Shown: positions 885-43,461, counted from the first letter of the stretch. The stretch is 64,000 nt of DNA from Candidatus Saccharimonadota bacterium (GCA_014377525.1 JACMPL010000028.1:4492-68491); one strand, 5' to 3'. A program made the numbers and translations. The notes: generated by a model from the letters alone, not told the origin.

Positions 885-1006
885 ATTTAGGTGTTACCTA
901 TTAGCCTCATTCAAACGAGCCATCATTTCGTTCACAACGGCTAATAAAGTGACGCCACAAATATTTTTGGTATAGTATATTAGAGAGATTTAAACAAACA
1001 TTCAAA

Positions 1007-2125: not shown

Positions 2126-2191
2126 TATCTACTAAGTCATTCCTTTTATAATGAGGATTATAACAATGACTGATATTATTTTTCGTTACTG

Positions 2192-3373: not shown

Positions 3374-3418
3374 AATACCTAGTATAAAGCTTGCGCTTGA
3401 AATATAATAGAACTCACT

Positions 3419-15695: not shown

Positions 15696-15726
15696 TTACT
15701 TCCCCTATGAAGAATTCCTTATTTCC

Positions 15727-19971: not shown

Positions 19972-21402
19972 CTAATATTCCAGTTTATATTGTCGCTTCA
20001 GGTAGGAGCCGTAAGTAGTTGATTTTGCGCAGTCAACAACCGATTGGCAAACACCGCTATCAAACTTTGCATACTGCAAAAATGTTTGGGTTTTTTCTTG
20101 ACTGTCGCTAAACGTTAAATTGTCATGGATGCCATGTATTGGATAGCCGATATACGCATATAATGGCACCAAATTTTTAGGATTACTTACCGTACCAGAA
20201 CTATTTGAATATACTCGTTGGTAGGCTTTCTTGGTATATAAGCCGGTTGTGACATGGTCGCTATGATCTAAATACTTATTATTTTTATAACTTCGTTCGG
20301 AGCTTTGCGACCGAATGACCGACGGTTGGTAATACTTGATCAAAGTACCAAGCGCTGCTATGAGTTGGTCTGACGAGTACGTCGACTGCTCATCGACCGA
20401 ATGTATCATGGCAATCCTTTGAGTCGCTAATTTTGCTAAACTTTCATTGTTGGAGTTTTTGAAGCCACTCCCGTCGAAATTACCATCGGGAAGATGCATA
20501 AAAATCAGCGATATCTTTGGATTAGTTTTGGGTGTTGCGACCGTAATAAATTCAGTATCAGTCAGTTTAACTATTCGCTTAATCCATAAGTCATCACTTT
20601 CAGTAGTCATATGTGAGTACGCGACCTCTGAACCCTGTTCACGCGACAGCCAGTAAAATTGATCGAGTCCGGCATCGCCAGCAGTTAGATATATAGTACG
20701 TGAACATTTTTCAGACTTAATATCGCGTGATAAGTCAGGGCTAAGAAATAGCAAGTCGTCATCCTGATGGGCAACAATATTTAGGTCCGTCTGACCGCCA
20801 CAATCAGTCTTCTCAAGTAGTTGACTAAGCTGGATTGGAACTACTGTCGAAGGCCCTTGAGGTCGTAGTGGGGCATCAGGGGAATTCTTGAGAACGCCTT
20901 TATCGTAGAGTAATATAACCTCTTTAGGGTTAGTTAAGCTACCGGCAATCAATATACTAGCATTAGGCCGACCATATGCCGCAACAACCTGCGATAATGA
21001 GCATTTGGAATCCGTATTGGTCGCCTGGTTGGCCGTGTCATAGGTAAGCACGTAAGCAAAACTACTTTTTCGATAATCCAATTTGGTCGGATCGATTACT
21101 GATGCGGTATCAACTCGCGGGCAGCTCGTTAATGGTATTAACCCCTGATTACCTTTTACGACCGGCGACAGAGCCGTAATCTTACGGATTTGGCCGACCA
21201 GGTTACTAATTGGGTGTTGGCGTAATGCACTAGCAATTGCTGCATTCTGAATGGTAGCTTCGCTACTTTTACTTTGGACAGCATGCCATTTGAAGGCGAT
21301 AAGGACACAGCTTAGAAATACGATCAGCGCTAAGACTGCCACATAAATGCGATGCTTTGATATTGGTCGATGTTCGGTTTTATTAAATGTTTCTTTGGCC
21401 AT
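19972..21402 (-). CDS. Membrane-anchored PIG-L/LmbE-family deacetylase, paralogue of the C-terminal half of 28626-31184
   Basis: It has one N-terminal TM helix and the motifs NIVAHQDDDLLFLSPD (AHPDDE-type) and DHSDH (HxDH Zn motif). About 380 aa are collinear with the larger paralogue, including six conserved Cys. Confidence 0.7.
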   Translation of the reverse strand: MAKETFNKTEHRPISKHRIYVAVLALIVFLSCVLIAFKWHAVQSKSSEATIQNAAIASALRQHPISNLVGQIRKITALSPVVKGNQGLIPLTSCPRVDTASVIDPTKLDYRKSSFAYVLTYDTANQATNTDSKCSLSQVVAAYGRPNASILIAGSLTNPKEVILLYDKGVLKNSPDAPLRPQGPSTVVPIQLSQLLEKTDCGGQTDLNIVAHQDDDLLFLSPDLSRDIKSEKCSRTIYLTAGDAGLDQFYWLSREQGSEVAYSHMTTESDDLWIKRIVKLTDTEFITVATPKTNPKISLIFMHLPDGNFDGSGFKNSNNESLAKLATQRIAMIHSVDEQSTYSSDQLIAALGTLIKYYQPSVIRSQSSERSYKNNKYLDHSDHVTTGLYTKKAYQRVYSNSSGTVSNPKNLVPLYAYIGYPIHGIHDNLTFSDSQEKTQTFLQYAKFDSGVCQSVVDCAKSTTYGSYLKRQYKLEY

Positions 21403-21422: not shown

Positions 21423-22199
21423 ATGTTTAAGTTATTAACAGTCGTTGCGCATAGAGGTTACTCTAGCGAGGCGCCCGAAAATACCATTGCCGCATTCGAT
21501 CTTGCCTTGCGTTATGGTTACAGCGACATCGAATTTGATGTCCAACTGAGTAAGGACGGCGTGCCAATGGTACTGCATGACGAGTTGCTTGGTCGAACGA
21601 CGAATGGCCTCGGTAGGCTTGATGGCTATACCTATGCTCAGCTCAAGCAGCTAGACGCCGGTTCATGGTTTAACCCGAAATTTGGTGAACAACGTATTCC
21701 TAGCTTACTCGAACTACTGGCTCGCTACAAATCAAAAGCCCGTTTACATATCGAACTCAAATCAACTGAATTTGAGCTGGCCGAACGCGTTGTGCAAGCA
21801 CTCGATGTTAGCGGCTGGTTACAGGCCGATACCCTAATTGAACGTGTTATGAGTCGTCAGCCAAAACTAGTTATATCATCGTTTAAGCGTACACAGCTAG
21901 AACGATCTATAAAATTATTGCCAAATGTAGCACACGAATTACTCGTTGAAACAATCACCGAAGAAAGCATGCTCTGGGCATCTCGTAATGGCATACGGAG
22001 TTATCACCCGGATGGAAAAGACATCACACCGGAGTTTGTAGCGCGCGCTCACGAGCTTAACTTGCACGTCGGGGCCTGGTGGTGGACTCGCCGAGACCAG
22101 GATACCCAGCAGATTGCCACTTACGGCGTCCGATACGCATTTGTCGATGAACCAAAGGCTCATCAACGTAGATTGATAAAACGTCCATACTCTTCCTAA
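21423..22199 (+). CDS. Glycerophosphodiester phosphodiesterase
   Basis: The GDPD signature is present: VVAHRGYSSEAPENTIAAF, IEFDVQLSKDGVPMVLHDELLGRTTNG. Confidence 0.85.
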   Translation: MFKLLTVVAHRGYSSEAPENTIAAFDLALRYGYSDIEFDVQLSKDGVPMVLHDELLGRTTNGLGRLDGYTYAQLKQLDAGSWFNPKFGEQRIPSLLELLARYKSKARLHIELKSTEFELAERVVQALDVSGWLQADTLIERVMSRQPKLVISSFKRTQLERSIKLLPNVAHELLVETITEESMLWASRNGIRSYHPDGKDITPEFVARAHELNLHVGAWWWTRRDQDTQQIATYGVRYAFVDEPKAHQRRLIKRPYSS

Positions 22200-27263: not shown

Positions 27264-28277
27264 TTAAGCGAGCTGATCATCGCGCTTCGATGCGATAATC
27301 GATCCGATAATAAGCCCTAGTCCTAACATCCCGGTAACGATTTCTGGTAGCTCATAGATCACCGATAGTATCATAGCGACTGCTAAGACGGCGATGGCGT
27401 AGTGTGCGCCGTGCTCCAAAAATTTGTAAGCATCAAGCGTGCCTTTACGCACCATGTAAACGGTCAATGAGCGCACCCAGACAGCGCCAACGCCGAGTCC
27501 GGCCACTATCAACACGACATCGGAGGTGATTGCGAACGCGCCGAGTACACCGTCGAGCGAAAAACTGGCGTCGAGTAGTTCGAGATACATAAACATCGTA
27601 AACGCCGCCCAGCCGGTATAGTGAGCCAGCTTATTTGTTTTATTCGTAGTCTTTTCGATGACGTAATTAAGCCCATGAATTGCTAAATAAACGGCTAGAC
27701 CAATAAAGCCGGCTCGAACGGTTTGCCCAGAATGATGATTAGCCGGAACTACTGCGATAACAGCGATGGCGATAGACGTTAGCAGCGCTGGCATCCAGGT
27801 AGTTCCAATCCGTTGCAGGAAGCGCTCGAAACGACTGAACCAATGATGCACCTTGCCTTTTTCCATAAAAAAGTGGAGCGCTAACATCATTAAAAAAGTC
27901 CCACCAAAGGCAGTAATTGTCGGGTGAGCCATTTCTAATCTATCGGCATACTCGGTCGGATGATTAAGTGCCAGATCGATAACCGCTCGCCACGACAAAT
28001 CGGCGGTGAGCGCGACAATCAGAATTGGAAATACTAGACGCATACCAAAAATAGCGATGATGATTCCAACGCTTAAAAATATTCGTTGCCAGGTTGGTGA
28101 CATTTTCTTGAGAATTTTGGCGTTGACGACCGCGTTATCAAAACTAAACGTAATTTCGATAATCATTAAAATGACGAGCGGCACAAGCGCAGCGGGGCCC
28201 AGGTAGTAAGCCGAGAAAATAATAGCAAGAATAGTCGCAGTAATCGAAAACCAGAAAAACTTAATTTGGGCTAACAT
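27264..28277 (-). CDS. DUF475 (TerC-superfamily) integral membrane protein
   Basis: The motif ITFSFDNAVVNAKILKKM is followed by multiple TM helices. Confidence 0.7.
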   Translation of the reverse strand: MLAQIKFFWFSITATILAIIFSAYYLGPAALVPLVILMIIEITFSFDNAVVNAKILKKMSPTWQRIFLSVGIIIAIFGMRLVFPILIVALTADLSWRAVIDLALNHPTEYADRLEMAHPTITAFGGTFLMMLALHFFMEKGKVHHWFSRFERFLQRIGTTWMPALLTSIAIAVIAVVPANHHSGQTVRAGFIGLAVYLAIHGLNYVIEKTTNKTNKLAHYTGWAAFTMFMYLELLDASFSLDGVLGAFAITSDVVLIVAGLGVGAVWVRSLTVYMVRKGTLDAYKFLEHGAHYAIAVLAVAMILSVIYELPEIVTGMLGLGLIIGSIIASKRDDQLA

Positions 28278-28292
28278 GGTCGTACTATCCTA

Positions 28293-28589
28293 TCATGGTC
28301 GATGAACTTTATTGTTTTTCGTATCAGCCGAGTCGGCTTTTTTGTCAACTTTTTGTTCGAAGTTGTCGGCTCGTTGTTTGGCTTTATCGTAGATGGCTGT
28401 TAGTGCAGACCTGGCAGTATCGGCGTGTTTGCGGGCCCATTCGAATTCTTGAGCTAACAGTAAAAGCGCCAAGAAACATACCAGCAAACCAGGGCCAGGC
28501 AGCGGAATCAAAATAATACCTACAGTAAATAATGGTATCCCGATAATCAAGATACCAGCTCGGCGTGCAAATTTTACAGTACTCCCCAT
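28293..28589 (-). CDS. PGPGW-motif small membrane protein
   Basis: The sequence IPLPGPGLLVCFLALLLLAQEFEWARK matches the family, and there are two TM helices. Confidence 0.6.
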   Translation of the reverse strand: MGSTVKFARRAGILIIGIPLFTVGIILIPLPGPGLLVCFLALLLLAQEFEWARKHADTARSALTAIYDKAKQRADNFEQKVDKKADSADTKNNKVHRP

Positions 28590-28625
28590 CCTCTTATTAT
28601 ACAGTAGTCGTTGTGCTAGTAGGCG

Positions 28626-31184
28626 TTAGTTATGACTTTGATATTGCCGTTGCAAATATGAACCATAGGTCGGCGTGTTATTGCACGCTTCAACTGTTTG
28701 ACAGACGCCAGCATCATACTGTGCGTAGGCTAGGAACGCCGCAAGTTTTTCGGTATACAGTGGACCATCGACGTTGGTAGGCGACTCACGAATTGGATAA
28801 CCGACGTAGTACGTTATTGGAATGCTGACTAAATTATCGAATATCTGTTGTTGGTAGACGTCATGAGCTAGGGTTACGAACCGTCCAACGCTGCCATGGT
28901 CACTGTGATCGCGCAGAATGTTCCCCTGAGCACTACTTTGAGTGCGAATCTCGGCAGGATTGTACAATGCCATGATCTCTGCCAGGGCCGACTCGAGTCC
29001 AGATTTTGTATAGCCGGATTGTTGATCAACCGAACTAATATTGGCGATTCGCCCCGTCTCGAGTCTATTCAGACTTTGATGTTTAGTTTTAGCAAAGCCA
29101 CCCCCGTCTAGCCCGCCATCCGGTAGACGCATGAATATCAGCGACACCTCGGGATGATCTTTGAGAGTTGAGACACGGACGTATTCGCCCCGTGGGAGTC
29201 GTACGATTCGTTGCAGCCAATCATTTTGGGAGTGCAGTAGCGTTGCATAGGCCGCTTGCGAGCCCTGCTCTCTCGACGCTAAGTAAGCAGCGCCATAACC
29301 GCTGTCACCGGCTGTCACGTAGACTGTCCGAACGCAACGGCCAGATTGTAAATCAACAGTAATATCCGGATTCATAAACAAAATATCATCGTCTTCGTGT
29401 GCAACAAAGTTCATGGTAGTCGCATTACGACAGTCGGTGCCTGGTAGCGCCGATGCAGCTATTGGCAAAATCGTCGCCGTATCGATAGGCTCAGTAGCGT
29501 TCGGCTTCTTAGATTTATCAAAGAATAGCAATAATTCAGTCGGTTTAGAGAGCGTACCGGCAATGAGCACACTCTCGTTCGGTGTGCCATAAGCCGTCAC
29601 GACTTGCGTTATCGAACACTGCGGAAAATCCGTCAGGCTTTTGTCGAGTGACAGCAAGTAAGCAAACGGTTTTGTATCAATATTTTGGCGCCAAACTTGG
29701 CTCACGAGTACCGTTCTGAGCTGCGTACAGGTAGCCAGCGGCTGTATCGTAACTGGCCGCCGAGATTGCTGACGTATTGGTAAGACTCGCCAGTAATCAC
29801 CGACTAATACCGGCATTTTACGCGAAGTCAGTACCTGTATGATTCGATGATTACGGCTATTAATCTGCTGATACGCTGCCTGCTGAGATTGTGAAGTCTG
29901 GCTAGCAACGTACACACCGATACCGATGCTGCCCATCAAAATTACGCCGCAAACTAGCACTCTGTTGGCTAACAATCGCTTGCTACGAAGCATTACTGCT
30001 AGACAAATGAAGCCCGCAAACCAGATAATTGTCATGTACCGGCTGTCGACCGCGTAATAATGATTACTAACGACATACAGCGCTATCGAAGCTAGTGCGG
30101 TCCAAGCTAACATCGCTGCAAGGAAGACGGCTTTTGGTGGCTTGGCCTTCGGGCTTTTAGCCAAGAATGCTCGTAATAAAATCTGACCAACTGCATAATT
30201 ACAGGCTAGAAGTATGCTAATGTTGACAACGTAGGCTGGGCCACCAACCGATAAAAGCCGGTGCAAGACTGCCGATGGTACTTGGGTAATCTGAGTCGCG
30301 TCATATGCCGGATTTGCACCAAAGTTCGTAAACAGACCGGCTATGGCATAGATTATGCCTACTAAGACTGTTTTTAAGTTAGTGACAAGTCCAAACGGTG
30401 CAGCAACAGTGACAATTCCGACGACATGCGTCGACTTCAGACCAACAATAATTAACCCGCTTAGCAGTGCGGCTAAGATGCTACCACCAAACCACCGCGC
30501 GGTGGCGGCAATGTAAGCAGTGCGGTTACGAACGGCGTAGGCAATCAGCGCGACTAACGATGCACCGATGCTCAAGCTCAAAAATAGCTGGTCGCTGACT
30601 ATAAGTAGCCCGAGTAGCGTAGCACCGGCAGCATAGCGCCAAAACTGTTTGCGTTCGGGCCACGTTAGCAACACGATAGACAGGATAAACACAATATACT
30701 CGATGTTGCGCGTTGCCACCATCGCCATATTTGTCGGCAAAATACCACCGACATATGGCTGAGCTGGGATCAATAATAATGTAGAAGCGAGCGCTAAACA
30801 AAGTGTTCCAAACACCAATGGACGGCGCTCAATTCGACGAAGCAACAGCGCCATCGAACCGATAGTAACCAGCATGACAGCAACCGTCATTGCGCGGTAG
30901 CTGGCATTACTAGAGTGGAATAAATGGATTATAAAAAATAACGGCCACTTAAGTAGGAACGTATGTTGGCTCGGGTACTGCGCACCGTGCATGACGTGGC
31001 TATTTTCGAAAAGATACGGGTTCACGATTTGATCGGCGTTTGATTGCTGAACAAGCGCACCCTGGTAGCCGACGAAGGCGGCGACCATACTTAGCAGTAC
31101 AACGGAAAGGAGCGCGTAGCCATTTTTAAAACTGCGGTGCGCAGTAATACGGACCAGTACTGGTGGTAGAACGATCGGCGGCAT
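28626..31184 (-). CDS. Fusion protein: polytopic membrane domain of about 450 aa (GT-C-like by context only) plus a PIG-L/LmbE deacetylase domain
   Basis: The N-terminal half has about 12-14 hydrophobic helices. The C-terminal half has NFVAHEDDDILFMNPD and DHSDH. Its ATG shares 1 nt with the TAA stop of the upstream GtrA gene. Confidence 0.7.
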   Translation of the reverse strand: MPPIVLPPVLVRITAHRSFKNGYALLSVVLLSMVAAFVGYQGALVQQSNADQIVNPYLFENSHVMHGAQYPSQHTFLLKWPLFFIIHLFHSSNASYRAMTVAVMLVTIGSMALLLRRIERRPLVFGTLCLALASTLLLIPAQPYVGGILPTNMAMVATRNIEYIVFILSIVLLTWPERKQFWRYAAGATLLGLLIVSDQLFLSLSIGASLVALIAYAVRNRTAYIAATARWFGGSILAALLSGLIIVGLKSTHVVGIVTVAAPFGLVTNLKTVLVGIIYAIAGLFTNFGANPAYDATQITQVPSAVLHRLLSVGGPAYVVNISILLACNYAVGQILLRAFLAKSPKAKPPKAVFLAAMLAWTALASIALYVVSNHYYAVDSRYMTIIWFAGFICLAVMLRSKRLLANRVLVCGVILMGSIGIGVYVASQTSQSQQAAYQQINSRNHRIIQVLTSRKMPVLVGDYWRVLPIRQQSRRPVTIQPLATCTQLRTVLVSQVWRQNIDTKPFAYLLSLDKSLTDFPQCSITQVVTAYGTPNESVLIAGTLSKPTELLLFFDKSKKPNATEPIDTATILPIAASALPGTDCRNATTMNFVAHEDDDILFMNPDITVDLQSGRCVRTVYVTAGDSGYGAAYLASREQGSQAAYATLLHSQNDWLQRIVRLPRGEYVRVSTLKDHPEVSLIFMRLPDGGLDGGGFAKTKHQSLNRLETGRIANISSVDQQSGYTKSGLESALAEIMALYNPAEIRTQSSAQGNILRDHSDHGSVGRFVTLAHDVYQQQIFDNLVSIPITYYVGYPIRESPTNVDGPLYTEKLAAFLAYAQYDAGVCQTVEACNNTPTYGSYLQRQYQSHN

Positions 31185-31612
31185 TAGTGTGTTTTTACAG
31201 CCTGCTCAATCGGCCTGAATATCCGAGTCTTGTACAGATAGAAATTCCAGATCGTGGTTATCGCCAGAGCTGAGGTTCGAGATACTGTTGGCGATACGCT
31301 ACTGGACAAGAATTTTACAACCAAAATAGTAAACCCGAAATTGAACAGAACTAGCAGTGCAAATGCAGTTATTTGTGGCAATAATACCCGAGCGTGCACC
31401 CGCTTATCCCGAAAAGTAACTAATTTAGTGAGTACGAACGATACGCTTAGTCCAAGCCAAAAACTAATGCCCACTGCTACGACGTCACTTGCCCCGGCTC
31501 GCTGTGCGATCAGAATAATTAGTAACTCCAACAGATAGACGGAGCCGCCGATCAATAAATACCGAACGCCTGGCCGCTGCGACACTTCAACTAATTTTTT
31601 CACGAGCTCCAA
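31184..31612 (-). CDS. GtrA-family membrane protein (putative polyprenyl-phosphate-sugar flippase)
   Basis: The protein is 142 aa with four TM helices and a GtrA-like N-terminus (VRYLLIGGSVYLLEL). It sits between the GT2 gene and the large membrane protein. Confidence 0.7.
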   Translation of the reverse strand: MELVKKLVEVSQRPGVRYLLIGGSVYLLELLIILIAQRAGASDVVAVGISFWLGLSVSFVLTKLVTFRDKRVHARVLLPQITAFALLVLFNFGFTILVVKFLSSSVSPTVSRTSALAITTIWNFYLYKTRIFRPIEQAVKTH

Positions 31613-32579
31613 CTTCTGATCTTACCTGTTTTATCGATTCTACGGCATCGACGATATAAAGCGGACGATTCTGCGTTTCGGCGTGGATGTGCGACAAATA
31701 CAGTCCGAGTATGCCTTGCGACATGAGCAAGCAACCGACAAGAAACAGAATAAGAATTAAGACGAAGGCCCCGCCGGTAATTCGCAGACTTAGCGGATCA
31801 CCAATCAACATTTCAAACGTCATAAATATACCCAGAATCACTGATATTGGCAGCACGATCACGCCCAATATAGCCGTAACATATAACGGTGTGTTGCTGA
31901 GCGAAACGAAGCTATCGATGGCTAGTTTGACAAGTTTTGTGACCGAATAAGTTGACGTCCCGCTCATCCGCTCCCGAGCTGCAAATGAAATATAAAACTG
32001 CTGATATCCAAGCCAATCGATGAGCCCGCGGGTTATGCGTCGCCGTTCGCTTAGCCGCAAGAATTCGATCTGAACCGACTGGTCTATCAGCCGAAAATCA
32101 GTCGTACCAGCTACTACCTCGCTACTACTTAGCCGCTTGAGCAGCATGTAAAATAATTTTGAGCCGTATTTTTTGACGAAACCTTCGTGCTCGTTCGCCG
32201 TTCTTACACCGGTTACAATCATGGAGCCATTCTGCCAAGCAGCCAGAAAATCCGGGATACGTTCAACCGGGTGTTGACCATCGGCGTCGATCATCATAAT
32301 TGCAGCACCACTGGCGTGTTCGATACCGGCAGTCGTGGCAACTTCTTTGCCAAAATTACGGGTTAACGCAATGATGTTGACTGCCCTGTCGTGCTCGGCA
32401 ATTTTTTTTATTTTTAATTGGGTGTCGTCAGTGGAACCATCGTTACAATAAATTATCTCGTAGGTAACACCGCTTAACTTCAACACGGCAATTAATGAAG
32501 CGTGAAATTGATTGATGCCAGCCGCTTCATTATGAAGCGGCACGACTATCGATAAAACTGGCGAATATGATTTTGACAT
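31587..32579 (-). CDS. Family 2 glycosyltransferase of the polyprenyl-phosphate sugar synthase type (GtrB/ArnC/DPM1-like)
   Basis: Supporting blocks are LSIVVPLHNEA, YEIIYCNDGSTDDT and MMIDADGQHP. It also has the two C-terminal TM helices typical of GtrB-like enzymes. Confidence 0.85.
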   Translation of the reverse strand: MSKSYSPVLSIVVPLHNEAAGINQFHASLIAVLKLSGVTYEIIYCNDGSTDDTQLKIKKIAEHDRAVNIIALTRNFGKEVATTAGIEHASGAAIMMIDADGQHPVERIPDFLAAWQNGSMIVTGVRTANEHEGFVKKYGSKLFYMLLKRLSSSEVVAGTTDFRLIDQSVQIEFLRLSERRRITRGLIDWLGYQQFYISFAARERMSGTSTYSVTKLVKLAIDSFVSLSNTPLYVTAILGVIVLPISVILGIFMTFEMLIGDPLSLRITGGAFVLILILFLVGCLLMSQGILGLYLSHIHAETQNRPLYIVDAVESIKQVRSEVGAREKIS

Positions 32580-35277: not shown

Positions 35278-35751
35278 CTAACGGCCAGTTCCTGGTGTCG
35301 GAGTTACGTTGACCGGCGCGACATTTATAATCAAGTTTGCCGATGGCCGATACAGTATCGCTTTTTGCTGCTGACTGTACACGAATGTTATATCGCCGTC
35401 CTTAGCTTGGACATAAAATTTCTGACCTTGTAACTTGGCGACATCTTTGACGGTTACGATCGTTGGCACCTCGTTTGTCGGTAGTAAGATCAATTTACCC
35501 AATCTAACTGTTTGAGCTGCATAGTACTGCTGCCCATTATTTTGCAGCTTGCTCTTAGCCTGCTCGTACTGCACGAACAGAAAAATACTAACTAGCGCCA
35601 AGATGGCCAGTAACACCCAGGGTAATTGTTTTTTTGATACCACGGTTTTAGGTTGCGGTAGTTTTAGTTTACGCTTTGGAGTTTTTGGAGGCTCGACCGG
35701 ATCGGTCGGCGGCATATACGTTCTAGTCGAAGATGTACTTGTCGATCGCAT
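35278..35751 (-). CDS. N-terminally TM-anchored hypothetical protein
   Basis: It has a Pro/Lys-rich N-terminus, one TM helix (WVLLAILALVSIFLFV) and an extracytoplasmic beta-rich domain of about 90 aa. Confidence 0.5.
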   Translation of the reverse strand: MRSTSTSSTRTYMPPTDPVEPPKTPKRKLKLPQPKTVVSKKQLPWVLLAILALVSIFLFVQYEQAKSKLQNNGQQYYAAQTVRLGKLILLPTNEVPTIVTVKDVAKLQGQKFYVQAKDGDITFVYSQQQKAILYRPSANLIINVAPVNVTPTPGTGR

Positions 35752-35798
35752 ACTGTCCCTTGTTTGTGACTGTATTGTAGCAAACTTGCGTGCGAATG

Positions 35799-38426
35799 CT
35801 AATGCTTACCGTCCGTGACGCTAGTTTTAGGTACCGTAACGATCGGATTTGTGGTAGTCAGCGGTTCATTTGCTCCAAGCGCTAACCAACTGAGCATCAT
35901 TGCAGCAGTGGCTGGTTGCTGTAACACGATGTCGAAACCTTTTGTTGTTACCTGGTCGATTGTCGACGCCGTAAAACTGCCATCATTCGCCGTCAGCGAA
36001 ATAATTGGGGCGCTATCATACTCCTTCTTAAAAGTAACATGCAGCTTAGTTTCACCAGCTTTAAACTGGGCATAACCGGCACTGTCACTGGAAACTGCCA
36101 GATGGCCTTGGAAGCTAACGTCTTGCCCAAAAATAGTTTTACCGACAAACGTTGCCAGCTTCTGAAAGGTCGTGAGTCCACCGAAATTTGCGTCACCGGC
36201 AACGCTGAGCCCGCCACTTAAATTAGCCGTTTCTATGTTAAGATTGCCGCTTAAGGTCGCATTGCCTGAATTATTGATAGAAGCTACCGTTTTCCCCGTT
36301 GCGTCGGTGATTGTCAATCCTTGATCAGTCACGGCTACACTCGACGAGTTACTCGTCTTAGGCTGAGTAACCGGCATTTTTGATGCCGTAGCGGACATGG
36401 GACTACTAATGCTTTCAGCGGATGCGTCAGGGCTGGCCACGGCTGCGGTACTTGTTGGAACAGCCAAGCTATCGGTTGCGCTGCCAGCAGTCGTATCGGT
36501 ACTGAGGTCAGCTTGTGTCTGCTGAGTAGCTACTACACTCGACGTGTCGGTTGCAGGCGTGATATTGTCATCCTGCCAGTAGCGGTAGTAGTCCATGTCA
36601 AAGTTTGATGTCGTATTTATCGTATGAATAACATGCATTTCTGGCGCGATATCAACCGTTGGCAAGGCACCCGTAACAGTTCCACAGTCTACCAGATTTA
36701 CACCATCCGTAGCATCACTATCGATAAAAAACCGAACGGTCGTAGCATCAACGACTACAATGCGGCCAGTTGCAAAGTTTGTACTAATTGTTCCGGGGCA
36801 TGTCACGGGCGTGCCAATAGTTGCTCCTGCCGAACGAACTATTCCTGTCCAGCCGGTTGCACCCGTACTATTATTACTTGCAAAGAAAATTCCGTTAGTC
36901 GGTAAGGTGTCATTGGCAGTTGGCGCTACAGCCGTGTCGGTTGCACCCCAGAAAAAATCGTCGGTAACACGCACGATACTTGGTCGAACTTTCATTTGGA
37001 TGATCGGCAGATTCGTTAAGTTGATCGGTTTATCGAGCGTTCCTGCTGTCGCGCCTAATCCTAATAAGGCACCTCGGTTAGCGGTTGTGCCAGTTGTCAT
37101 TCTAAAATAACCACCGAGTGTACTAATATCGGAGCTACTGACTGTGTTACCTCCACCGTTAGCAAAATACCAGTGATTATCATCGCCGACGTTTCGGTTA
37201 TTGGTCGTAGCAGCAGCAAGTGAAGCGACAAACTCTTGGCTGTACTGGTCGGTTGTACCAATGAATGCGCCACTCGAAAATACGCCACCGAAATTACCAC
37301 CAGCACTGCCACCAGAGCCAACTGTGGTCGTAGCGCCTGTTAATAAACTTGGATTAAAGTAATCGTAACCTTTGCCGATAATTTCACCACTGGCATTAAT
37401 CGTGGTGGTAGTGCCAATGGTAGTAGTGCCGTTGCCCGGTAGTAATGCCAGATTCGCAAAATTACCATTTGAGCCGCCACCGACTTTTAATGTCGTGCCG
37501 CTGTTTTGTAACGCCGTTAATGGCGCGGCGGCCGTCGTGCCAGTACCAGCCCCTCCCAGATCAAGACATATCGAGGTAAAAGAACCACAGGCACTGCTCG
37601 TCAAGTACGACGAGTACGAACCGGTTCCGTCATTATAGCCAAAAAACAGTGGACGCGATCCAGTAGCCTGACTCGTAACTACCACCAGGCTTGGCGCGTA
37701 GCCGCTAGGGTAAGCGGGCGGGGCTGTGATCTGACCGTTATTCAGCAGTAGCTGATTAGAAATATAGCTGGCTGACTGAATGTTGACCTGACCGCTTGTG
37801 GCAATACCGGTAGCAGCAGTGATCGCCCCAGTACTACTGACGGCTAAGGCTCCACTGTTGATGCTGAGCGAGTTGCCTTGCAGTGCTCCGGCCGAGGTGA
37901 TGCCACCACTAACATTTATCGCACCAGTTTGTTGTGCGCTTGGCGATAATTGAACGAATTGGCTGGCGCTCAGTCCACCGACTTTATCGGCATTGAAAGC
38001 ATAAGGAATGGACTGTAGTTGAACGCGCGGCGTCATTTCGCCAGCCGCGTCACCATTGAAGGTAATGCCGAGGTACAAGCTATTACTGACGCTGAAATCG
38101 ATTGGCGTGTTGTTGTTACAAGCTGCCGCTACGAAGAACGAACAGCTACTTCCCAGGTTGACCTGAAACGTTCCGGCCACAACTGTCACGCTTGACTGCG
38201 TTTCAGTCCACAGAGCAGTACCCGCGCTGCTAACCGAATATAATTTAAATACAAAGCCGTACGTGCCATCGGCCATATTGGTGCCATCGGCCTTCACGAC
38301 CTTGCCCTGAAAGCTCATGGTCTGCGGATTAACAGCGTGCGCAGCTGGAAATGTGACTACAGAAAACGCTAGCAAAAATAGGCTGGTGATTACTGCTAAG
38401 GCGCCGAATACTCGAACACGACCCAC
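35799..38426 (-). CDS. Large secreted surface protein (875 aa), fibre/adhesin-like
   Basis: After the signal peptide (..FPAAHA) comes an N-terminal module MSFQGKVVKADGTNMADGTYGFVFKLYS..ALWTE..VTVVAGTFQVNLG...PRVQLQSIPYAFNADKVGG, then Gly/Ser/Thr/Ala-rich repeats and a jelly-roll-like middle. The C-terminal module YDSAPIISLTANDG..VTTKGFDIVLQQ...LSWLALG is tentatively H-type-lectin-like. Confidence 0.65.
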   Translation of the reverse strand: MGRVRVFGALAVITSLFLLAFSVVTFPAAHAVNPQTMSFQGKVVKADGTNMADGTYGFVFKLYSVSSAGTALWTETQSSVTVVAGTFQVNLGSSCSFFVAAACNNNTPIDFSVSNSLYLGITFNGDAAGEMTPRVQLQSIPYAFNADKVGGLSASQFVQLSPSAQQTGAINVSGGITSAGALQGNSLSINSGALAVSSTGAITAATGIATSGQVNIQSASYISNQLLLNNGQITAPPAYPSGYAPSLVVVTSQATGSRPLFFGYNDGTGSYSSYLTSSACGSFTSICLDLGGAGTGTTAAAPLTALQNSGTTLKVGGGSNGNFANLALLPGNGTTTIGTTTTINASGEIIGKGYDYFNPSLLTGATTTVGSGGSAGGNFGGVFSSGAFIGTTDQYSQEFVASLAAATTNNRNVGDDNHWYFANGGGNTVSSSDISTLGGYFRMTTGTTANRGALLGLGATAGTLDKPINLTNLPIIQMKVRPSIVRVTDDFFWGATDTAVAPTANDTLPTNGIFFASNNSTGATGWTGIVRSAGATIGTPVTCPGTISTNFATGRIVVVDATTVRFFIDSDATDGVNLVDCGTVTGALPTVDIAPEMHVIHTINTTSNFDMDYYRYWQDDNITPATDTSSVVATQQTQADLSTDTTAGSATDSLAVPTSTAAVASPDASAESISSPMSATASKMPVTQPKTSNSSSVAVTDQGLTITDATGKTVASINNSGNATLSGNLNIETANLSGGLSVAGDANFGGLTTFQKLATFVGKTIFGQDVSFQGHLAVSSDSAGYAQFKAGETKLHVTFKKEYDSAPIISLTANDGSFTASTIDQVTTKGFDIVLQQPATAAMMLSWLALGANEPLTTTNPIVTVPKTSVTDGKH

Positions 38427-38530
38427 TGATACTTCCTCTAAATTTTTATTTTAAGATTTTGTATCAAAATTGTATCAAATTCTACAACCAAACACAAGCA
38501 TTTTACAGGTTGCGGGGCGGCGTTAGTTGT

Positions 38531-39472
38531 TCAGTTTGCGTTCACAGGATTGCGTCGTTTATAGCGGCGAAAACCAACTACTATCAGCAGGCCGACAATC
38601 AATATAAAGACGAGATAAATTTTTAAACCGGCGAAACGTAACCCAATAGTTTTATTACGAGTCACAGCCAAACCATCGTAGCGATAATCGACCGATACAG
38701 TATACGGACCGGGCAATTGGATTCCGGTTTTAACTGGGGTGAGTTTTACGTAGATTTGCCGATACGTTTCGGGTAGCACATAGTTCGAATCATCATTGAT
38801 GACACCGCGCGCGACTACCTGCCCGGCTGAATTTTTGAGGCTGACAACGCCCCTTGGTATAACGTGAACATTACCTGGATTTTGAAATCGTAAGCGAACG
38901 GTATTTGGCAAATGGAGCCAATTACCGTTTGGAGCAATGTCTTTCAGCGATAAGTCAAAATGCTCACCACCATGCTTGGTAACGAGAATCAGGCTCGTCA
39001 GTTGCTGACTTATTTGAACGTTATTACTACCCTTTATGGACTCGCTATCGATAGACGCAATCACTGCACCATAATGACCGCCCGGCTGCAACGAGCTACG
39101 GTTATCTATCGTTACATCAACGGCTTTCGACTCACCCGGTTCGAGCAGTACACTATTGGTTGCCAGCGTTAACCACGACGTCAGACCATACTTCTGCGAA
39201 TATTCGGCATTACCGGCAAACAAAATGCCACCGCTGTCGTTTAGCGAACCAAAATCTTGGGGCGATAAGTGTAATTGCTGAGCGCTCAGCATGTTGTTTG
39301 TTATGGTCAGCGTAAAAGTTTTCGAGGTGTCACCGGGATTTATTTCGACCGGTTGTAAAAAGGGGCTGAGTGTTATGCCCTGGAGCGGCGCGGCCGAAAC
39401 TGCTGTGGTCGGCCAGCCCAGTGTTATCAGACCACCGATTATTACCCCGAGTAGCAGCAGCTTATTTCGCAT
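38531..39472 (-). CDS. DUF916/DUF3324-like cell-surface protein with a C-terminal TM anchor (paralogue B)
   Basis: It has a signal peptide, two beta-rich domains (..LTITNN.., GGHYGAVIAS, RLRFQNPGNVHVIPRGVVSLKN, PGPYTVSVDYRYDG), a single C-terminal helix and the basic tail RRYKRRN. The start at ATG 39472 overlaps the upstream gene by 11 nt. Confidence 0.5.
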   Translation of the reverse strand: MRNKLLLLGVIIGGLITLGWPTTAVSAAPLQGITLSPFLQPVEINPGDTSKTFTLTITNNMLSAQQLHLSPQDFGSLNDSGGILFAGNAEYSQKYGLTSWLTLATNSVLLEPGESKAVDVTIDNRSSLQPGGHYGAVIASIDSESIKGSNNVQISQQLTSLILVTKHGGEHFDLSLKDIAPNGNWLHLPNTVRLRFQNPGNVHVIPRGVVSLKNSAGQVVARGVINDDSNYVLPETYRQIYVKLTPVKTGIQLPGPYTVSVDYRYDGLAVTRNKTIGLRFAGLKIYLVFILIVGLLIVVGFRRYKRRNPVNAN

Positions 39473-40517
39473 TACGCGTTGGCTTACGAATTCCTTTGGC
39501 TTTACGCAACACAGTCCGAAAGATAACAAAAGTCCCAAATCCAAGCACCAGAATTATAACTCCAGCGCCCAACAAAATCTTCCATGGCAGTACCCAGAAC
39601 GTGACAGACGACTCCATTGGTACGTCCTGTTTACCATCATCGTATACGACGAGTAACTTAGCAGTGTACTTACCGAATCGTAGCTTGGAAACCTGAGAAA
39701 AATCGTATGTAAGTTCTTGGACTGGTTTGGCCCTCTTGTCATATACTGGTTTGCCGTTGACGACCTTATCCTTGAATTTTGGGAACCCACTGGTCCAGGG
39801 TACGCTGTAAACGCGATTAGAAGCTGGCAAGACGCTGCTACCGACGTCATTAAAGTTAATCGTCGTCACCGGTTTACCACCCTTGGTAATAAAAATATTC
39901 CCTGTCGGCGCCAGGTAGATATTGCCGGTATTGCGGAGCTTAACCGTAAAATCAACTGGCACATATTCGTATAGTTTCTTCTCAACGGTAAAATCGAGTA
40001 GGTTCAACGAGCGCTTATCGTCTACGCCCCGCACATCAAGCAGTACCAGCGTCGCGGCTGATCCCTTGACGCTGCTTTGGCCCGCAGTGTCACCAGGTTG
40101 ATTGGCTCGACTGAATGTGACTGCCAGGTAGTAGCCGAGAGAAGCTTCTGGTGGAACTTTGATTGTCATCTTAACCGTCTTCCAGACGTTCGGCTCGGCC
40201 ACGAACTGGCTTGGTGTGAACGTCACCCAGTTGGCATAAATATCTTTCGGCGTAAGATCGAACAGGTTCGGCTGACCGGATTCGCCGGTTGCGCCAAACT
40301 TCATTAGGCCCATTTTGATGGTCTCATTCTGCGGGTTGAGATTCTTCATACGTAGTTCAGTAGTAACCGTTTTACCGGGAGTCGTGTTGAGTTTAATCGG
40401 CAACGGCGAAGTAATAATGTTAAAGCCATCGGCCGCTTGAACCGATGGATACTTAACTAGCCCTAGCAGACCTAACATGAGCGCTAGTGCGCAGAACCCG
40501 AGTAGCATCCGCTTCAT
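39462..40517 (-). CDS. DUF916/DUF3324-like cell-surface protein with a C-terminal TM anchor (paralogue A)
   Basis: The architecture matches paralogue B: signal peptide (..PSVQA), TELRMKNLN, LGYYLAVTF, VKLRNTGNIYLAPTGNIFITKG, FGKYTAKLLVVYDDG, a C-terminal helix and a basic tail. Confidence 0.5.
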   Translation of the reverse strand: MKRMLLGFCALALMLGLLGLVKYPSVQAADGFNIITSPLPIKLNTTPGKTVTTELRMKNLNPQNETIKMGLMKFGATGESGQPNLFDLTPKDIYANWVTFTPSQFVAEPNVWKTVKMTIKVPPEASLGYYLAVTFSRANQPGDTAGQSSVKGSAATLVLLDVRGVDDKRSLNLLDFTVEKKLYEYVPVDFTVKLRNTGNIYLAPTGNIFITKGGKPVTTINFNDVGSSVLPASNRVYSVPWTSGFPKFKDKVVNGKPVYDKRAKPVQELTYDFSQVSKLRFGKYTAKLLVVYDDGKQDVPMESSVTFWVLPWKILLGAGVIILVLGFGTFVIFRTVLRKAKGIRKPTRNAK

Positions 40518-40577
40518 TGCGCTTAAGTATAGACTAGTAATCAGGGGTCAGCAAGTTAATCTTGCTGACCAGGTCGC

Positions 40578-41633
40578 TTAGTAGTTACCAGCCGCGACAA
40601 CCGTCAGAACATCAGTGTAATCGTTGGCGTAGCCGATGGTATTAGCAACCGTAACACGTTCTTTGAGGTTGACGGTATCGGCGTTGGTGTAGCCGTTACG
40701 AGAAACAAATGAGGCGAAGTTAGTGGTATTGAATGAGCCACCGATAGTGCCACTGGCACCAACGTTGTATTCGCTGTTGTACGTCAGCGCACCGGTTGCG
40801 GATGTAGCAGCCGCACCAGTTGTTGGCACAAACAAATAGTTGGTAGTTCCTGGAGTTGCCGTGTCGGGAGTTCCATCAAACGTACCGGTCGTAATCGGCG
40901 TCGCTGGGCTTGTCGCTGATGTCAGGGAGGCGTTAGCTGATTTAACGTAGGCAGTGTAGCCGAGTGGAGAGTTAGTTCCGACAACCATATTGACTCCAGG
41001 TGATGTCTTGATGGACGTCGAGTCAGCTTGAGGAACTGTATCGGCGTTGGCACTGAGTGAGAAGTTGAAATTCGGCGCGACTGAGGCCGAGACCGTGACT
41101 TGGTCGGCATTAGCCGTTGCACCGGTGATGTACACTGGCGTCGTCGTCAGATCGATAGTCGTACCACCACTGTTTTGGCTTTCAACTGTAGAGTTGTATT
41201 GCCCGGCAGTTGCTGGGTTTTGAATCGTTCCCGAAGGAATCGTAAAGCCATATAGAGTTGTGTTGTTAAGGCTGGCTGAGGTTAAACCGGAGACGACAAT
41301 ATCACGAGTGCCGGAAGTAGCGGCTGCGGTCAATGTTCCTGGAGGAGCTGTTATGCCTGTTGGCGACTGTGGGAAACCAGTTGTACCGACGGCTGGCGTA
41401 CCTGTCGTAATGACAAAACCAGTTGGAAACGCTACGCGGATCTTGGAAACGGCAGTTGGTGTCGTGTTTAGCTTAAATGTTACTAATAAATCATTTCCGG
41501 TTGTCGCACTAATGCCGAGGCGACCTAAACGAATACTGGCTTGGCTCAGTTGAGCGGCTCCGGCGGCTGCAGGTAGTAGTAGGGATGCGATCAGTCCGAC
41601 CGCGACGAGGTAATATTTTTTATTTTGTAGCAT
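40578..41633 (-). CDS. Secreted Gly/Ser/Thr-rich beta protein ending in ..DYTDVLTVVAAGNY (WxL/SCPU-like module, tentative)
   Basis: After the signal peptide (..AAGAA) the C-terminal half shares conserved blocks with 41747-42793. The protein has no Cys and no LPXTG motif. Confidence 0.5.
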   Translation of the reverse strand: MLQNKKYYLVAVGLIASLLLPAAAGAAQLSQASIRLGRLGISATTGNDLLVTFKLNTTPTAVSKIRVAFPTGFVITTGTPAVGTTGFPQSPTGITAPPGTLTAAATSGTRDIVVSGLTSASLNNTTLYGFTIPSGTIQNPATAGQYNSTVESQNSGGTTIDLTTTPVYITGATANADQVTVSASVAPNFNFSLSANADTVPQADSTSIKTSPGVNMVVGTNSPLGYTAYVKSANASLTSATSPATPITTGTFDGTPDTATPGTTNYLFVPTTGAAATSATGALTYNSEYNVGASGTIGGSFNTTNFASFVSRNGYTNADTVNLKERVTVANTIGYANDYTDVLTVVAAGNY

Positions 41634-41746
41634 AGTCTTTTTTTATATTAATGATTAATACATTAATGGTACATTGCTGAGATTCAAAGTCAATACAACT
41701 TACGTTTAAATAACTGCATTAATAACAACGTTTTACCACTACGAGG

Positions 41747-42793
41747 CTAAAAATTGCCGGCGGCAATAAATGTCAGAACGTCCTGATAATCGTTGGCGGC
41801 GACATCGATAGACGAGGCTTTGGCTTTGAGGGCCAGCGTTCCAGCACCGTTGGTAACTGGGGCCGACGACGAATAGAGGCTCCGAATAGTACTATCGATA
41901 ATGCCGACATTGTTGCCACTACCGTTATAGGGGCTGAGGGCGTTAAACGGCCCACCGCTACCAACGCTAGCACTAGTACTCTGGGCACCGAAGCCTTTAC
42001 TAGCGCCACTTAAATCGGTGCTGATTGCGTTAATTATGTTACCGGTTGAGCCGCTTAGCAGTCCACCATTTTGGCTTTTAATATAGACATTGGCGCCGCT
42101 AACACCATTTGTCGACACCGCCGTGTTGATTGTTTGGCCACTGCTAGCGATCGTTCCGGCGCTCAATGTACCAAGTCCAATACTGAATGGCGGCGTAGAC
42201 TGAGCACTCGTTACTAGGCTGAATGTGATCGATGGCGCCGCGGTTTGTAGTGCATTGGTCGGGCCGAAGGCAGATTCACTAAACTTCCCTTGCGTAGCTT
42301 TTGCCTTGAACGTGTAGGTCGTACTTGGTTGCAAACCGATGACCAGGCTGCCAGCACCAGCGCCTAGTGCGACGTACGTTTGATAACTGCTCAGCGTCAG
42401 CGTAGAGGTTATCGTACCATCAGGTAATAAATATTTGATATCGCTGGCAAAACCGTCACTACTGACGGCAACTAGATAGGTGGCATCGGTTGGATTACCC
42501 TGTGTATCGAGTACAAAATGGAGTTTGTTATAATATTGCCCGCCGCTCGTGTCGATGCTAGCGATTTTGGGGACGTTTGCCTGCTGTGTTTCGACGTAGC
42601 CGGGTTTGGTAGTTACGTTCGCAGTACTACCGGTTATGCCCGACAGTTCACCGGCAGTACCTTCTAGCGCGTAAGTCGCTGTCGAAGAGTTTGTTACGCC
42701 ACCACTTCCAAAGCCATAACTATTTAATTTATAGTTAGAGGTTGCTGGCAAAGCCGCAAACAGCAGTACCCCCATCAGTGCGCTTAGTTTCAT
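41747..42793 (-). CDS. Secreted Gly/Ser/Thr-rich beta protein ending in ..DYQDVLTFIAAGNF, with an FN3-like middle
   Basis: The start is placed at ATG 42793 (MKLSALMGVLLFAALPATS). It has an SNYKLNSYGFGSGG..TATYALEGTAGE N-terminal repeat, an FN3-like GLQPSTTYTFKAKAT block, and a C-terminal module paralogous to 40578-41633. Confidence 0.5.
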   Translation of the reverse strand: MKLSALMGVLLFAALPATSNYKLNSYGFGSGGVTNSSTATYALEGTAGELSGITGSTANVTTKPGYVETQQANVPKIASIDTSGGQYYNKLHFVLDTQGNPTDATYLVAVSSDGFASDIKYLLPDGTITSTLTLSSYQTYVALGAGAGSLVIGLQPSTTYTFKAKATQGKFSESAFGPTNALQTAAPSITFSLVTSAQSTPPFSIGLGTLSAGTIASSGQTINTAVSTNGVSGANVYIKSQNGGLLSGSTGNIINAISTDLSGASKGFGAQSTSASVGSGGPFNALSPYNGSGNNVGIIDSTIRSLYSSSAPVTNGAGTLALKAKASSIDVAANDYQDVLTFIAAGNF

Positions 42794-42816
42794 ATATATA
42801 CAGTAGCATTTTGCTG

Positions 42817-43461
42817 TTACTGCACCCAATGCCAGTTAGCGAGCAGTGTCTTGATTGTCTTGACCTCCTCGGTATTAGCCCCGCCACCAGCCGATTCGTA
42901 GCCTGAGCGGACGCCGATCGTCGCAATATACCCACCGTGCAGCCAAAAACTAACGGCCCCGGAGGCCTGCGTATCGCTGGCAATAGCAATCTGTTCGCCC
43001 GCAACCGTCGTTTGTTCAAATGTGTATCGAGCTGTATCGGCCATCCGAATAGCGTAGCTGGTATTCGATTGCAGTCCGCCGTCGACGGCGCTCGACACAG
43101 CTACCGAAATTATCTGGGTGCCGCTAGCGCTGGCATGTGTCAACATCGAACTAGCTAACACACCGGGAACGGTGGGGATATTCGTCTGCACGGCAAATCC
43201 GGCTGGCGTGTCGAGCGTGTAGTATTTCTCATCAATTTGCCCGGCTGGCACAACGGGCGCACTATTTTTCTTGCTGGTCGCCGGTAGTATCGTCGCACTC
43301 GATCCGTGAGCCGGCACTCCCAAAATATGCACTAAGTAGCTCCCAATAACGATTATTAGAAATCCACCAATCAGCATCAGCTTGGCTTTCCGGCTGATCA
43401 CTCGATATTTTTTTGGCTTTTTTTTGGTAGGTTCGAGCGTGGGTTTCGGCGTTGATTCCAT
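42817..43461 (-). CDS. N-terminally TM-anchored hypothetical protein, first gene of the surface cluster
   Basis: It has a Lys-rich N-terminus, one TM helix (LMLIGGFLIIVIGSYLV) and an extracytoplasmic domain of about 160 aa. Confidence 0.45.
   Translation of the reverse strand: MESTPKPTLEPTKKKPKKYRVISRKAKLMLIGGFLIIVIGSYLVHILGVPAHGSSATILPATSKKNSAPVVPAGQIDEKYYTLDTPAGFAVQTNIPTVPGVLASSMLTHASASGTQIISVAVSSAVDGGLQSNTSYAIRMADTARYTFEQTTVAGEQIAIASDTQASGAVSFWLHGGYIATIGVRSGYESAGGGANTEEVKTIKTLLANWHWVQ

Follow-up and report, generated by a model that had tools for sequence, protein, structure and literature searches.

Why should a deacetylase of the PIG-L family be joined, in a single polypeptide, to a polytopic membrane protein, and why should the gene for this fusion lie directly downstream of genes for a lipid-linked sugar synthase and a GtrA-family protein? 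The question is raised by a locus in a Candidatus Saccharibacteria genome, within a stretch of 64,000 nucleotides (GCA_014377525.1, JACMPL010000028.1:4492-68491) that is referred to here as the window and supplies the coordinates of its genes. Saccharibacteria attach to other bacteria, and their surface chemistry, which is central to their biology, is almost uncharted. Five open reading frames (ORFs) occupy the minus strand of the window at 27264-32579. The first three in the direction of transcription encode a glycosyltransferase of family 2 (GT2) of the GtrB/ArnC type, which is a predicted polyprenyl-phosphate sugar synthase (31587-32579; 330 amino acids (aa); PF00535, 1.6e-26), a small membrane protein of the GtrA family (31184-31612; 142 aa; PF04138, 4.6e-13), and an 852-aa protein (28626-31184) in which a membrane module with a modelled GT-C fold, a middle domain and a PIG-L domain (PF02585, 8e-11, at aa 591-773) follow one another. 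A public entry that is 100% identical to the 852-aa protein is named only 'PIG-L family deacetylase', and public annotation of its relatives goes no further than 'PIG-L/LmbE family deacetylase'. The evidence set out below favors a three-component system of the Gtr/Arn type in which extracytoplasmic glycosylation is combined with deacetylation, and we put the probability of this overall scheme, whichever order its steps may take, at roughly 0.6.

Gene order and conservation of the fusion

The first-pass annotation of this locus had left the reality and the spread of the fusion as questions, and both are answered by its relatives. Among 5.8 billion proteins, the 852-aa protein has at least 492 relatives. 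The best 120 of these share about 45% identity with it, span nearly the whole query and are almost all 850-900 aa long. Relatives are encoded in at least 540 species genomes when one genome per GTDB species is scanned, the best 80 of which belong essentially all to the Saccharibacteria/Saccharimonadales. Gene arrangement was followed in 83 related loci, 72 of them with sufficient upstream DNA, and residue conservation in 55 homologs of the 852-aa protein. The membrane half and the PIG-L half are encoded in a single uninterrupted frame in 83 of 83 loci, and the objection that the fusion might be an assembly artefact or the product of a frameshift at the junction is therefore removed.

Directly upstream of the fusion gene, both the GT2 and the GtrA genes are found in 41 of the 72 loci, GtrA only in 13, GT2 only in 11 and neither in 7, which amounts to a GT2 and/or GtrA gene in 65 of 72 loci and a GtrA gene in 54 of 72. 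Given this upstream pairing and the single frame in all 83 loci, the GT2/GtrA/fusion arrangement is far beyond chance. The order GT2-GtrA-fusion and the gene overlaps are conserved among related loci, and the other flanking genes vary. In the window, one base is shared between the stop codon of GtrA and the start of the 852-aa ORF (TAATG), as had been noted before. The overlap of 26 nucleotides reported between the GT2 and GtrA genes depends on a GtrA start that is ambiguous, in that it holds if translation begins at the TTG at 31612 and does not hold if one of the in-frame GTG codons at 31603 or 31585 is used. Genes for RmlD (of the rhamnose pathway), GT4, epimerase or ABC-2 proteins flank the triad in only 16 of 59 long loci; such flanks are too inconsistent for the acceptor to be deduced from gene context.

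The class of the GT2 protein, that of a polyprenyl-phosphate glycosyltransferase, is clear from sequence comparison. The protein matches Synechocystis GtrB (5EKP) over its full length (E 1.2e-60, aa 8-313), transmembrane hairpin included, and it matches the ArnC structures at about 1e-32, likewise over the whole length with the hairpin. The best NCBIfam models are those of PgfS (1.6e-61) and ArnC (3.4e-38), both of which score far under their equivalog cut-offs, and the match to PpgS (1.6e-08) is confined to the N-terminal part. A cytoplasmic GT-A catalytic domain followed by a C-terminal transmembrane hairpin is predicted, and the two C-terminal helices described earlier for this protein correspond to hydrophobic helices at aa 234-252 and 267-285. 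The sugar that the enzyme would load is most likely an N-acetylhexosamine (HexNAc). GtrA is proposed to act as a flippase for the lipid-linked sugar or as a helper in its flipping, and in three relatives of the large protein (P0065, P0105 and P0106) it is fused in frame at the N-terminus.

The membrane module and the location of the deacetylase

The membrane module (aa 1-455; 29820-31184, minus strand) was modelled with AlphaFold2 as part of the full-length 852-aa protein (pLDDT 90.7, pTM 0.86) and as part of a construct comprising aa 1-575 (pLDDT 88.2, pTM 0.89). Foldseek searches with the shorter model matched GT-C enzymes of five different families, namely the C-mannosyltransferase DPY19 (1.5e-4), STT3 of the OST complex (1.2e-3), ArnT (3e-3), PglB (1.3e-2) and Pmt4 (3.8e-2). 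All matches with a probability of at least 0.9 are GT-C proteins (probability 0.98-1.0, TM-score 0.38-0.45), and transporters, channels and other polytopic proteins have probabilities of at most 0.25 and TM-scores of about 0.1. AftA joins the GT-C matches when the full-length model is searched. The confident structural neighbors are thus GT-C proteins only, in keeping with the GT-C-like fold on which the earlier proposal for this locus had been made to depend. Because the similarity is remote, the module is described here as having, in the model, a GT-C fold, and it is not assigned to any named GT-C family.

On the evidence of sequence searches, the module belongs to a new sequence family with a GT-C fold, one that Pfam does not cover. 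Pfam, searched at E up to 1, has no family in the N-terminal approximately 590 aa of any of the 55 members. Among PDB sequences, neither the protein itself (with phmmer) nor the family profile gives a match beyond chance, the best for the profile being S1P receptors (E about 0.5). A HMMER pass over 1.84 billion representative proteins retrieved 226 relatives, all of them of the same family.

In GT-C enzymes, the first extracytoplasmic loop, which comes after transmembrane helix 1, is expected to hold a conserved acidic residue, and D51 occupies this place, as would suit a GT-C active site. It lies in the motif N49-A-D51-Q52 after helix 1 (aa 17-45 in the model), of which N49, D51 and Q52 are invariant among the homologs and are retained in P0370, a GT-C protein that is not fused to a deacetylase. 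Further invariant polar residues cluster in other predicted outside loops (R159/N160/E162/Y163, D198, N287/G289/A290/N291/P292 and H375/D380/R382/Y383). The loop motif TNFGANPAYDAT (aa 286-297; 30294-30329, minus strand) is conserved in GT-C modules that are fused to PIG-L and is replaced by unrelated sequence in P0370. This motif may mark the donor specificity of the module, for a hexosamine (HexN) as opposed to HexNAc or a hexose, or it may mark a surface on which the deacetylase docks. In this gene context, with a GtrB-type synthase and/or GtrA gene directly upstream in 65 of the 72 loci, the putative donor of the module would be a polyprenyl-phosphate-linked sugar.

A small alpha/beta middle domain (aa 456-560; 29505-29819, minus strand) follows the last transmembrane helix. 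It was recognized from the secondary structure of the models, from conservation, and from alignments with P0370 and with a paralog of the tail encoded elsewhere in the window. Invariant within it are a GDYWR motif and the cysteines C486 and C523, which form a pair, and the domain is common to unfused GT-C proteins and membrane-anchored PIG-L paralogs. The remainder of the protein consists of a linker (aa 561-588) and the LmbE/PIG-L domain (aa 589-852), which together with the stop codon occupy 28626-29504 on the minus strand and were assigned by Pfam, Foldseek and motif. PF02585 is matched at 43.0 bits, against a cut-off of 28.2, over profile positions 1-128 of 129, and it is matched in all 55 homologs. 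The motifs VAHEDDD and DHSDH, which had been recognized at first reading, lie at aa 594-600 and 759-763 and hold the metal and catalytic residues H596-E-D598-D599 and H760-S-D762-H763, invariant in the homologs; HXD1D2 together with H is the metal-binding and general-base motif of LmbE/PIG-L enzymes (PMC4101496). The invariant cysteines of this part of the protein are C585/C617 and C828/C834.

In the model, the PIG-L domain has the Rossmann-like alpha/beta fold of MshB and BshB. Foldseek matches it to BshB (2IXD, 3.6e-5), LnmX, MshB, diacetylchitobiose deacetylase and teicoplanin deacetylase, and the entries 2IXD, 5BMO, 6P2T, 1Q74 and 4XM1 all have a probability of 1.0 and target-normalised TM-scores of 0.45-0.59. 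Profile, modelled fold and motif agree in making the C-terminal half an LmbE/PIG-L deacetylase whose active site is intact, and its putative activity is probably that of a de-N-acetylase on a substrate of the N-acetylglucosamine type.

The side of the membrane on which this domain lies depends on the number of crossings that precede it. The first-pass annotation had counted 12-14 transmembrane helices; the membrane part instead has 11 peaks of hydropathy, and its AlphaFold model shows 12 hydrophobic helices. The topology that we prefer from the sequence data has 11 true crossings and an N-in/C-out orientation. The helix at 270-287, whose family-mean hydropathy is only 1.06, is consistent in this case with a juxtamembrane or re-entrant position within a long loop on the outer side. 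An N-in/C-out arrangement with an odd number of helices is the usual one in the GT-C enzymes that the module resembles. Over the 55 homologs, lysine plus arginine residues amount to 22.0 inside versus 7.5 outside if the tail is placed outside, and to 17.9 versus 11.6 if it is placed inside; the last two short loops, at 338-352 and 400-408, are strongly basic. The tail has exactly six cysteines in every homolog (at 486, 523, 585, 617, 828 and 834), as would be expected if they formed three structural disulfides, and the cysteines of the membrane region vary.

The 476-aa paralog of the tail module (19972-21402, minus strand; Pfam PIG-L, 1.5e-10), encoded in the window away from the operon, bears on the same point. 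It consists of a basic N-terminus, one transmembrane helix (aa 19-37) and the middle and PIG-L domains, and its alignment with aa 455-849 of the fusion covers 417 aa (40% identity, E 2e-89) and brings all six cysteines into register. Its single pass and positively charged N-terminus give it an unambiguous N-in/C-out orientation. In P0190, a relative from another genome, the four hydrophobic segments of a GtrA domain and one more stand ahead of the PIG-L module. Finally, beyond the phylum, the proteins closest to the catalytic domain show the architectures of secreted carbohydrate-active proteins. Four independent lines, namely the charge bias, the invariant tail cysteines, the anchored paralog and these secreted-looking relatives, thus give strong, if computational, support to an extracytoplasmic PIG-L domain. 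On the same evidence we reject the 12-crossing topology with a cytoplasmic PIG-L domain, a placement that would have weakened the earlier proposal.

Several relatives of the catalytic domain, P0214, P0232 and P0234 among them, were noted in passing. Aspergillus species have relatives at about 40% identity that are 275-aa proteins with signal-peptide-like N-termini, and further fungal and bacterial (actinomycete) relatives carry PKD, F5/8-type-C and DUF7402 domains. By sequence, these proteins look like a secreted, uncharacterised and kingdom-spanning branch of the LmbE enzymes of carbohydrate esterase family 14 (CE14), with a C-terminal cysteine pair in common.

Module combinations and the proposed pathway

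The modules of the fusion occur in several combinations across genomes. The arrangement GT2-GtrA-[GT-C+middle+PIG-L], in which brackets enclose the parts of one protein, is that of the window and of most loci, and at one locus (L003) GtrA is part of the fusion as well, giving GT2-[GtrA::GT-C+middle+PIG-L]. At two further loci the PIG-L gene lies directly after the GT2 gene and overlaps it, and the operon contains no GT-C. One of them (L084, 7001-8881) has the form GT2-[GtrA::TM+middle+PIG-L], where TM stands for a transmembrane segment, and its fusion protein P0190 (626 aa) has five predicted transmembrane segments. The other (L088, 6001-7551) has the form GT2-[three TM+middle+PIG-L], and the N-terminal hydrophobic segments of its protein P0192 (516 aa) have no Pfam match. 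GT2-GtrA-[GT-C+middle] without PIG-L is found at L090 and L091, an unfused GT-C follows a GT2 and a small 76-aa ORF at L092, and an anchored PIG-L stands alone in the in-window paralog and at L086. Recombination of the modules as GT2-GtrA-GT-C, GT2-GtrA::PIG-L and GtrA::GT-C::PIG-L ties GT2, GtrA, GT-C and PIG-L to one pathway, and the overlaps between the genes point the same way. The deacetylase is repeatedly linked to enzymes that make and flip a lipid-linked sugar, even where the operon has no GT-C.

The role of the membrane module can be judged best from its unfused form. P0370 is a complete 558-aa ORF that aligns with residues 13-560 of the fusion at 31% identity and retains the motifs NADQ, KWP, RIE(K/R)RP, NMAM..RNIEY and D.RY. 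Because the unfused GT-C holds the third position at L090 and L091, the module appears to behave as the third, transferase part of a Gtr-type operon with or without PIG-L. A different role can be envisaged, in which the module is a GT-C-derived anchor or lipid platform that presents the substrate to the deacetylase while another enzyme carries out the transfer. Such a role would suit the lack of sequence similarity to characterised GT-C enzymes and the remoteness of the structural likeness, as well as the pairing of the deacetylase module with other anchors (a single transmembrane helix, GtrA or three transmembrane segments). It sits poorly with the polar residues of the predicted outside loops (D51, R159/N160/E162, D198 and H375/D380/R382), which are invariant in homologs of about 45% identity and most of which the unfused form, itself only 31% identical, retains. 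The unfused form, moreover, stands after GT2-GtrA (L090 and L091) or after GT2 (L092), where a Gtr-type transferase would be placed. We consider a mere anchor very improbable and retain the reading of the module as a putative transferase.

The recurrence of these combinations also bears on the substrate of the deacetylase. The PIG-L domain could act on some other amide, or on fragments of host chitin or peptidoglycan in the course of scavenging, and its fusion to the membrane module would then serve co-localisation only. Saccharibacteria depend on host-derived amino sugars, and the secreted relatives with carbohydrate-binding modules look like polysaccharide-processing enzymes. The LmbE superfamily, of which the GalB found by Foldseek is an example, also includes amidases and even a hydratase (PMC4101496). 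Against this stand at least four architectures in which PIG-L is fused or operon-linked to GT2, GtrA and GT-C. Such repeated and independent association is difficult to account for unless the substrate is shared, and it leaves this reading with only the slightest likelihood.

In the scheme that we favor, the GT2 would load the sugar, most likely HexNAc, from a nucleotide sugar onto polyprenyl phosphate at the cytoplasmic face of the membrane, and GtrA would help the lipid-linked sugar to reach the outer face. There the GT-C module, whose fold is modelled, would take the sugar off its lipid carrier and attach it to an acceptor on the surface, and the LmbE/PIG-L domain, predicted to be zinc-dependent and stabilised by disulfides and having an intact motif, would strip the N-acetyl group outside the cell. 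The end product would be a free, positively charged amino sugar on the surface. The observations from which this scheme is built are a conserved gene order, the modelled folds, catalytic motifs that are intact, and the ways in which the modules are associated.

The order of the last two steps is the weakest and least secure link of the scheme. Our tentative preference, held at slightly less than even odds, is that deacetylation precedes transfer. The deacetylase would act on the flipped polyprenyl-phosphate-linked HexNAc (polyprenyl-P-HexNAc), and polyprenyl-P-HexN would be the donor for the GT-C module. This order, which has also been proposed for galactosamine (GalN) on mycobacterial arabinogalactan, is favored by the GT2-[GtrA::PIG-L] and GT2-[TM::PIG-L] operons and by the loop motif that sets the fused form apart. 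Alternatively, deacetylation could follow transfer. HexNAc would then be attached by the GT-C module to a surface polymer or a surface protein, after which the PIG-L domain, held close by its tether, would de-N-acetylate that residue or its neighbors. A covalent tether beside the transferase would put the deacetylase at the site where the product is released, modules of a carbohydrate-binding type (F5/8 type C and PKD), which are typical of polymer-acting enzymes, occur in the proteins nearest to the catalytic domain, and anchored paralogs exist without a nearby GtrB-type GT2. This order seems less likely in view of the operons of L084 and L088, which lack a GT-C and tie the deacetylase to the synthesis and flipping of the lipid-linked sugar, and of the presence of TNFGANPAYDAT in fused modules and not in P0370, which fits a different donor and could equally be a docking surface.

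A number of points weigh against the scheme as a whole or against one of its parts. The GT2 scores far below every NCBIfam equivalog cut-off, and these models do not name its sugar; the sugar, the acceptor and the order of deacetylation and transfer are what we infer from the rest. The likeness of the membrane module to GT-C enzymes is remote (TM-score about 0.4, root-mean-square deviation 10-15 Å, 8-14% identity), and no sequence bridge to a known GT-C family was found in PDB, Pfam, NCBIfam or the 1.84 billion representative proteins. The hydratase GalB is among the Foldseek matches of the PIG-L domain, and enzymes other than sugar deacetylases share the LmbE fold. The number of crossings is ambiguous, as the 12 hydrophobic helices of the model would by their count put the tail inside, and a tail on the outside needs helix 270-287 not to cross the membrane. 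The fusion gene adjoins neither partner gene in 7 of 72 loci. The in-window paralog and P0189 have no adjoining GtrB-type GT2, and the deacetylase module can therefore also work outside a GT2/GtrA operon. Lastly, S. epibionticum, a genetically tractable Saccharibacterium, seems to lack the fusion gene, and its transposon sequencing tables contain no PF02585 protein; a GT2-GtrA pair is scored in these tables as essential or growth-defective.

The in-window paralog is adjoined by neither a GtrB-type GT2 nor a GtrA gene. Its orthologs, which are 450-500 aa long, are common in Saccharibacteria, and by its sequence it probably represents one more enzyme of this type.

Known systems and neighboring genes

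The closest analogue in logic is the GalN route of mycobacteria and corynebacteria. In this route, the GT2 PpgS (Rv3631) makes polyprenyl-P-GalNAc together with the GtrA-like protein Rv3632, the sugar is flipped and de-N-acetylated, and the GT-C enzyme Rv3779 puts GalN on arabinogalactan (PMC9671496, PMC3485146). The deacetylase and the flippase of the route were 'as yet unidentified' as of 2022 (PMC9671496). The Saccharibacterial locus shares with it the logic and the predicted type of cationic product. The two differ in that nothing is fused in the mycobacterial route, whereas here an identifiable LmbE-type domain is covalently joined to a GT-C module, and in that the GT2 here is of the GtrB/ArnC type with a transmembrane hairpin and matches PpgS only over its N-terminal part. 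The first-pass annotation, which knew of no PIG-L deacetylase fused to the outside transferase in systems of this kind, overlooked the mycobacterial route, which needs a deacetylase between PpgS/Rv3632 and Rv3779 (PMC9671496).

The related statement that Arn-type systems have no de-N-acylase overlooked ArnD, which deformylates the ArnC product before it is flipped by ArnE/F and transferred by ArnT (PMC12690121). The likeness to the Arn system extends to a GT2 akin to ArnC, a de-N-acylase, a small membrane protein and, by Foldseek, a GT-C module akin to ArnT. ArnD differs from the deacetylase described here in being a separate protein, a deformylase, and active before flipping; the enzyme here is of the LmbE type, fused to the GT-C module and predicted to act outside after flipping. 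The fold of ArnD is of the NodB/CE4 type and not that of LmbE.

With the systems GtrA/GtrB/GtrC, CsbB/GtcA/YfhO, GacI/J/L and PgfS/PgfM, the locus shares the order GT2-GtrA-GT-C and the overlaps between genes. Its GT-C module has no match in any Pfam family of those systems, and we know of no deacetylase in GtrABC, CsbB/GtcA/YfhO, the streptococcal GacI/J/L or PgfS/PgfM. The PIG-L domain in turn has the Pfam family, fold and motif of the LmbE/PIG-L enzymes of CE14 (MshB, BshB, PIG-L, and the diacetylchitobiose and teicoplanin deacetylases). To our knowledge, the characterised members of CE14 are soluble cytoplasmic enzymes or, in the case of PIG-L, face the cytoplasm. Unlike them, the domain here is predicted to be extracytoplasmic and membrane-tethered, it comes with three invariant cysteine pairs, and it belongs to the secreted-looking, uncharacterised branch of which the Aspergillus and actinomycete proteins are also members. 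Its spacer from D599 to H763 is 164 residues in sequence, as compared with 97-148 in characterised members (PMC4101496).

A literature search returned no description of an LmbE-type enzyme in this role, of an extracytoplasmic LmbE or of a fusion to GT-C, and none of Saccharibacteria envelope glycosylation of this kind. What is new is the LmbE-type enzyme, its predicted outside location and the covalent fusion, the logic of the pathway being already known. The operon, which is conserved across environmental Saccharibacteria, predicts a specific surface modification in the form of a free-amine hexosamine, and LmbE/PIG-L enzymes, which are thought of as cytoplasmic, would have an exported, disulfide-bearing branch. 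The GtrA::GT-C::PIG-L and GtrA::PIG-L proteins are 'Rosetta-stone' fusions that link the deacetylase to the flipping and transfer of a lipid-linked sugar, and the step so linked is the one whose enzyme is missing in the mycobacterial GalN pathway.

It is possible, if on the doubtful side, that the exported LmbE domain edits polyprenyl-P-HexNAc to polyprenyl-P-HexN in the outer leaflet right after GtrA-assisted flipping. Editing at this point would make translocation effectively irreversible and would create the true donor for the fused GT-C module. The domain would then be the first identified enzyme for the extracytoplasmic de-N-acetylation of a lipid-linked monosaccharide, and exported LmbE/CE14 proteins would be a candidate class for the missing deacetylase of mycobacterial arabinogalactan GalN. 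For the Saccharibacteria themselves, the result would be a major cationic decoration of the surface that could matter for attachment to the host.

The two remaining ORFs of the row at 27264-32579 encode a PGPGW protein (28293-28589, minus strand; Pfam 7.5e-17) and a DUF475/TerC protein (27264-28277, minus strand; Pfam 3.7e-103). All five ORFs were recovered in the order and at the coordinates first given for them, and the Pfam assignments agree. The PGPGW and DUF475 genes are part of the row in this genome, and the suggestion that they belong to the system is ruled out by their absence from all 83 related loci; since they occur in 0 of 83, they are incidental neighbors here. A scan for promoters and terminators gave counts near the shuffled expectation and nothing usable.

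Upstream of the GT2-GtrA-(unfused GT-C) genes of L091, at 24-3575 of that locus, are genes for a UbiA prenyltransferase, a 575-aa protein without a Pfam match and a HAD::GtrA fusion. The set resembles the mycobacterial route to decaprenyl-phospho-arabinose, whose parts are UbiA, a phosphatase and a protein like GtrA, and it suggests a second lipid-linked sugar pathway adjoining the operon.

Elsewhere in the window, a gene for a glycerophosphodiester phosphodiesterase (GDPD; PF03009, 5.9e-38; 21423-22199, plus strand) is divergent from the gene of the PIG-L paralog and might relate to the turnover of a surface glycerol-phosphate polymer or of lipid. A glycoside hydrolase of the GH10 xylanase family (PF00331, 1.4e-72) is encoded at 12965-14125 on the minus strand, beside genes for Nramp and Kup transporters at 14328-17625. 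Seven consecutive minus-strand ORFs at 35278-43461 encode proteins of 157, 875, 337, 351, 351, 360 and 214 aa that have essentially no Pfam matches apart from one weak Fn3-like match. The 875-aa protein of this run has a signal-peptide-like N-terminus and is rich in threonine, serine, glycine and alanine, and the sequences suggest a cluster of putative surface proteins.

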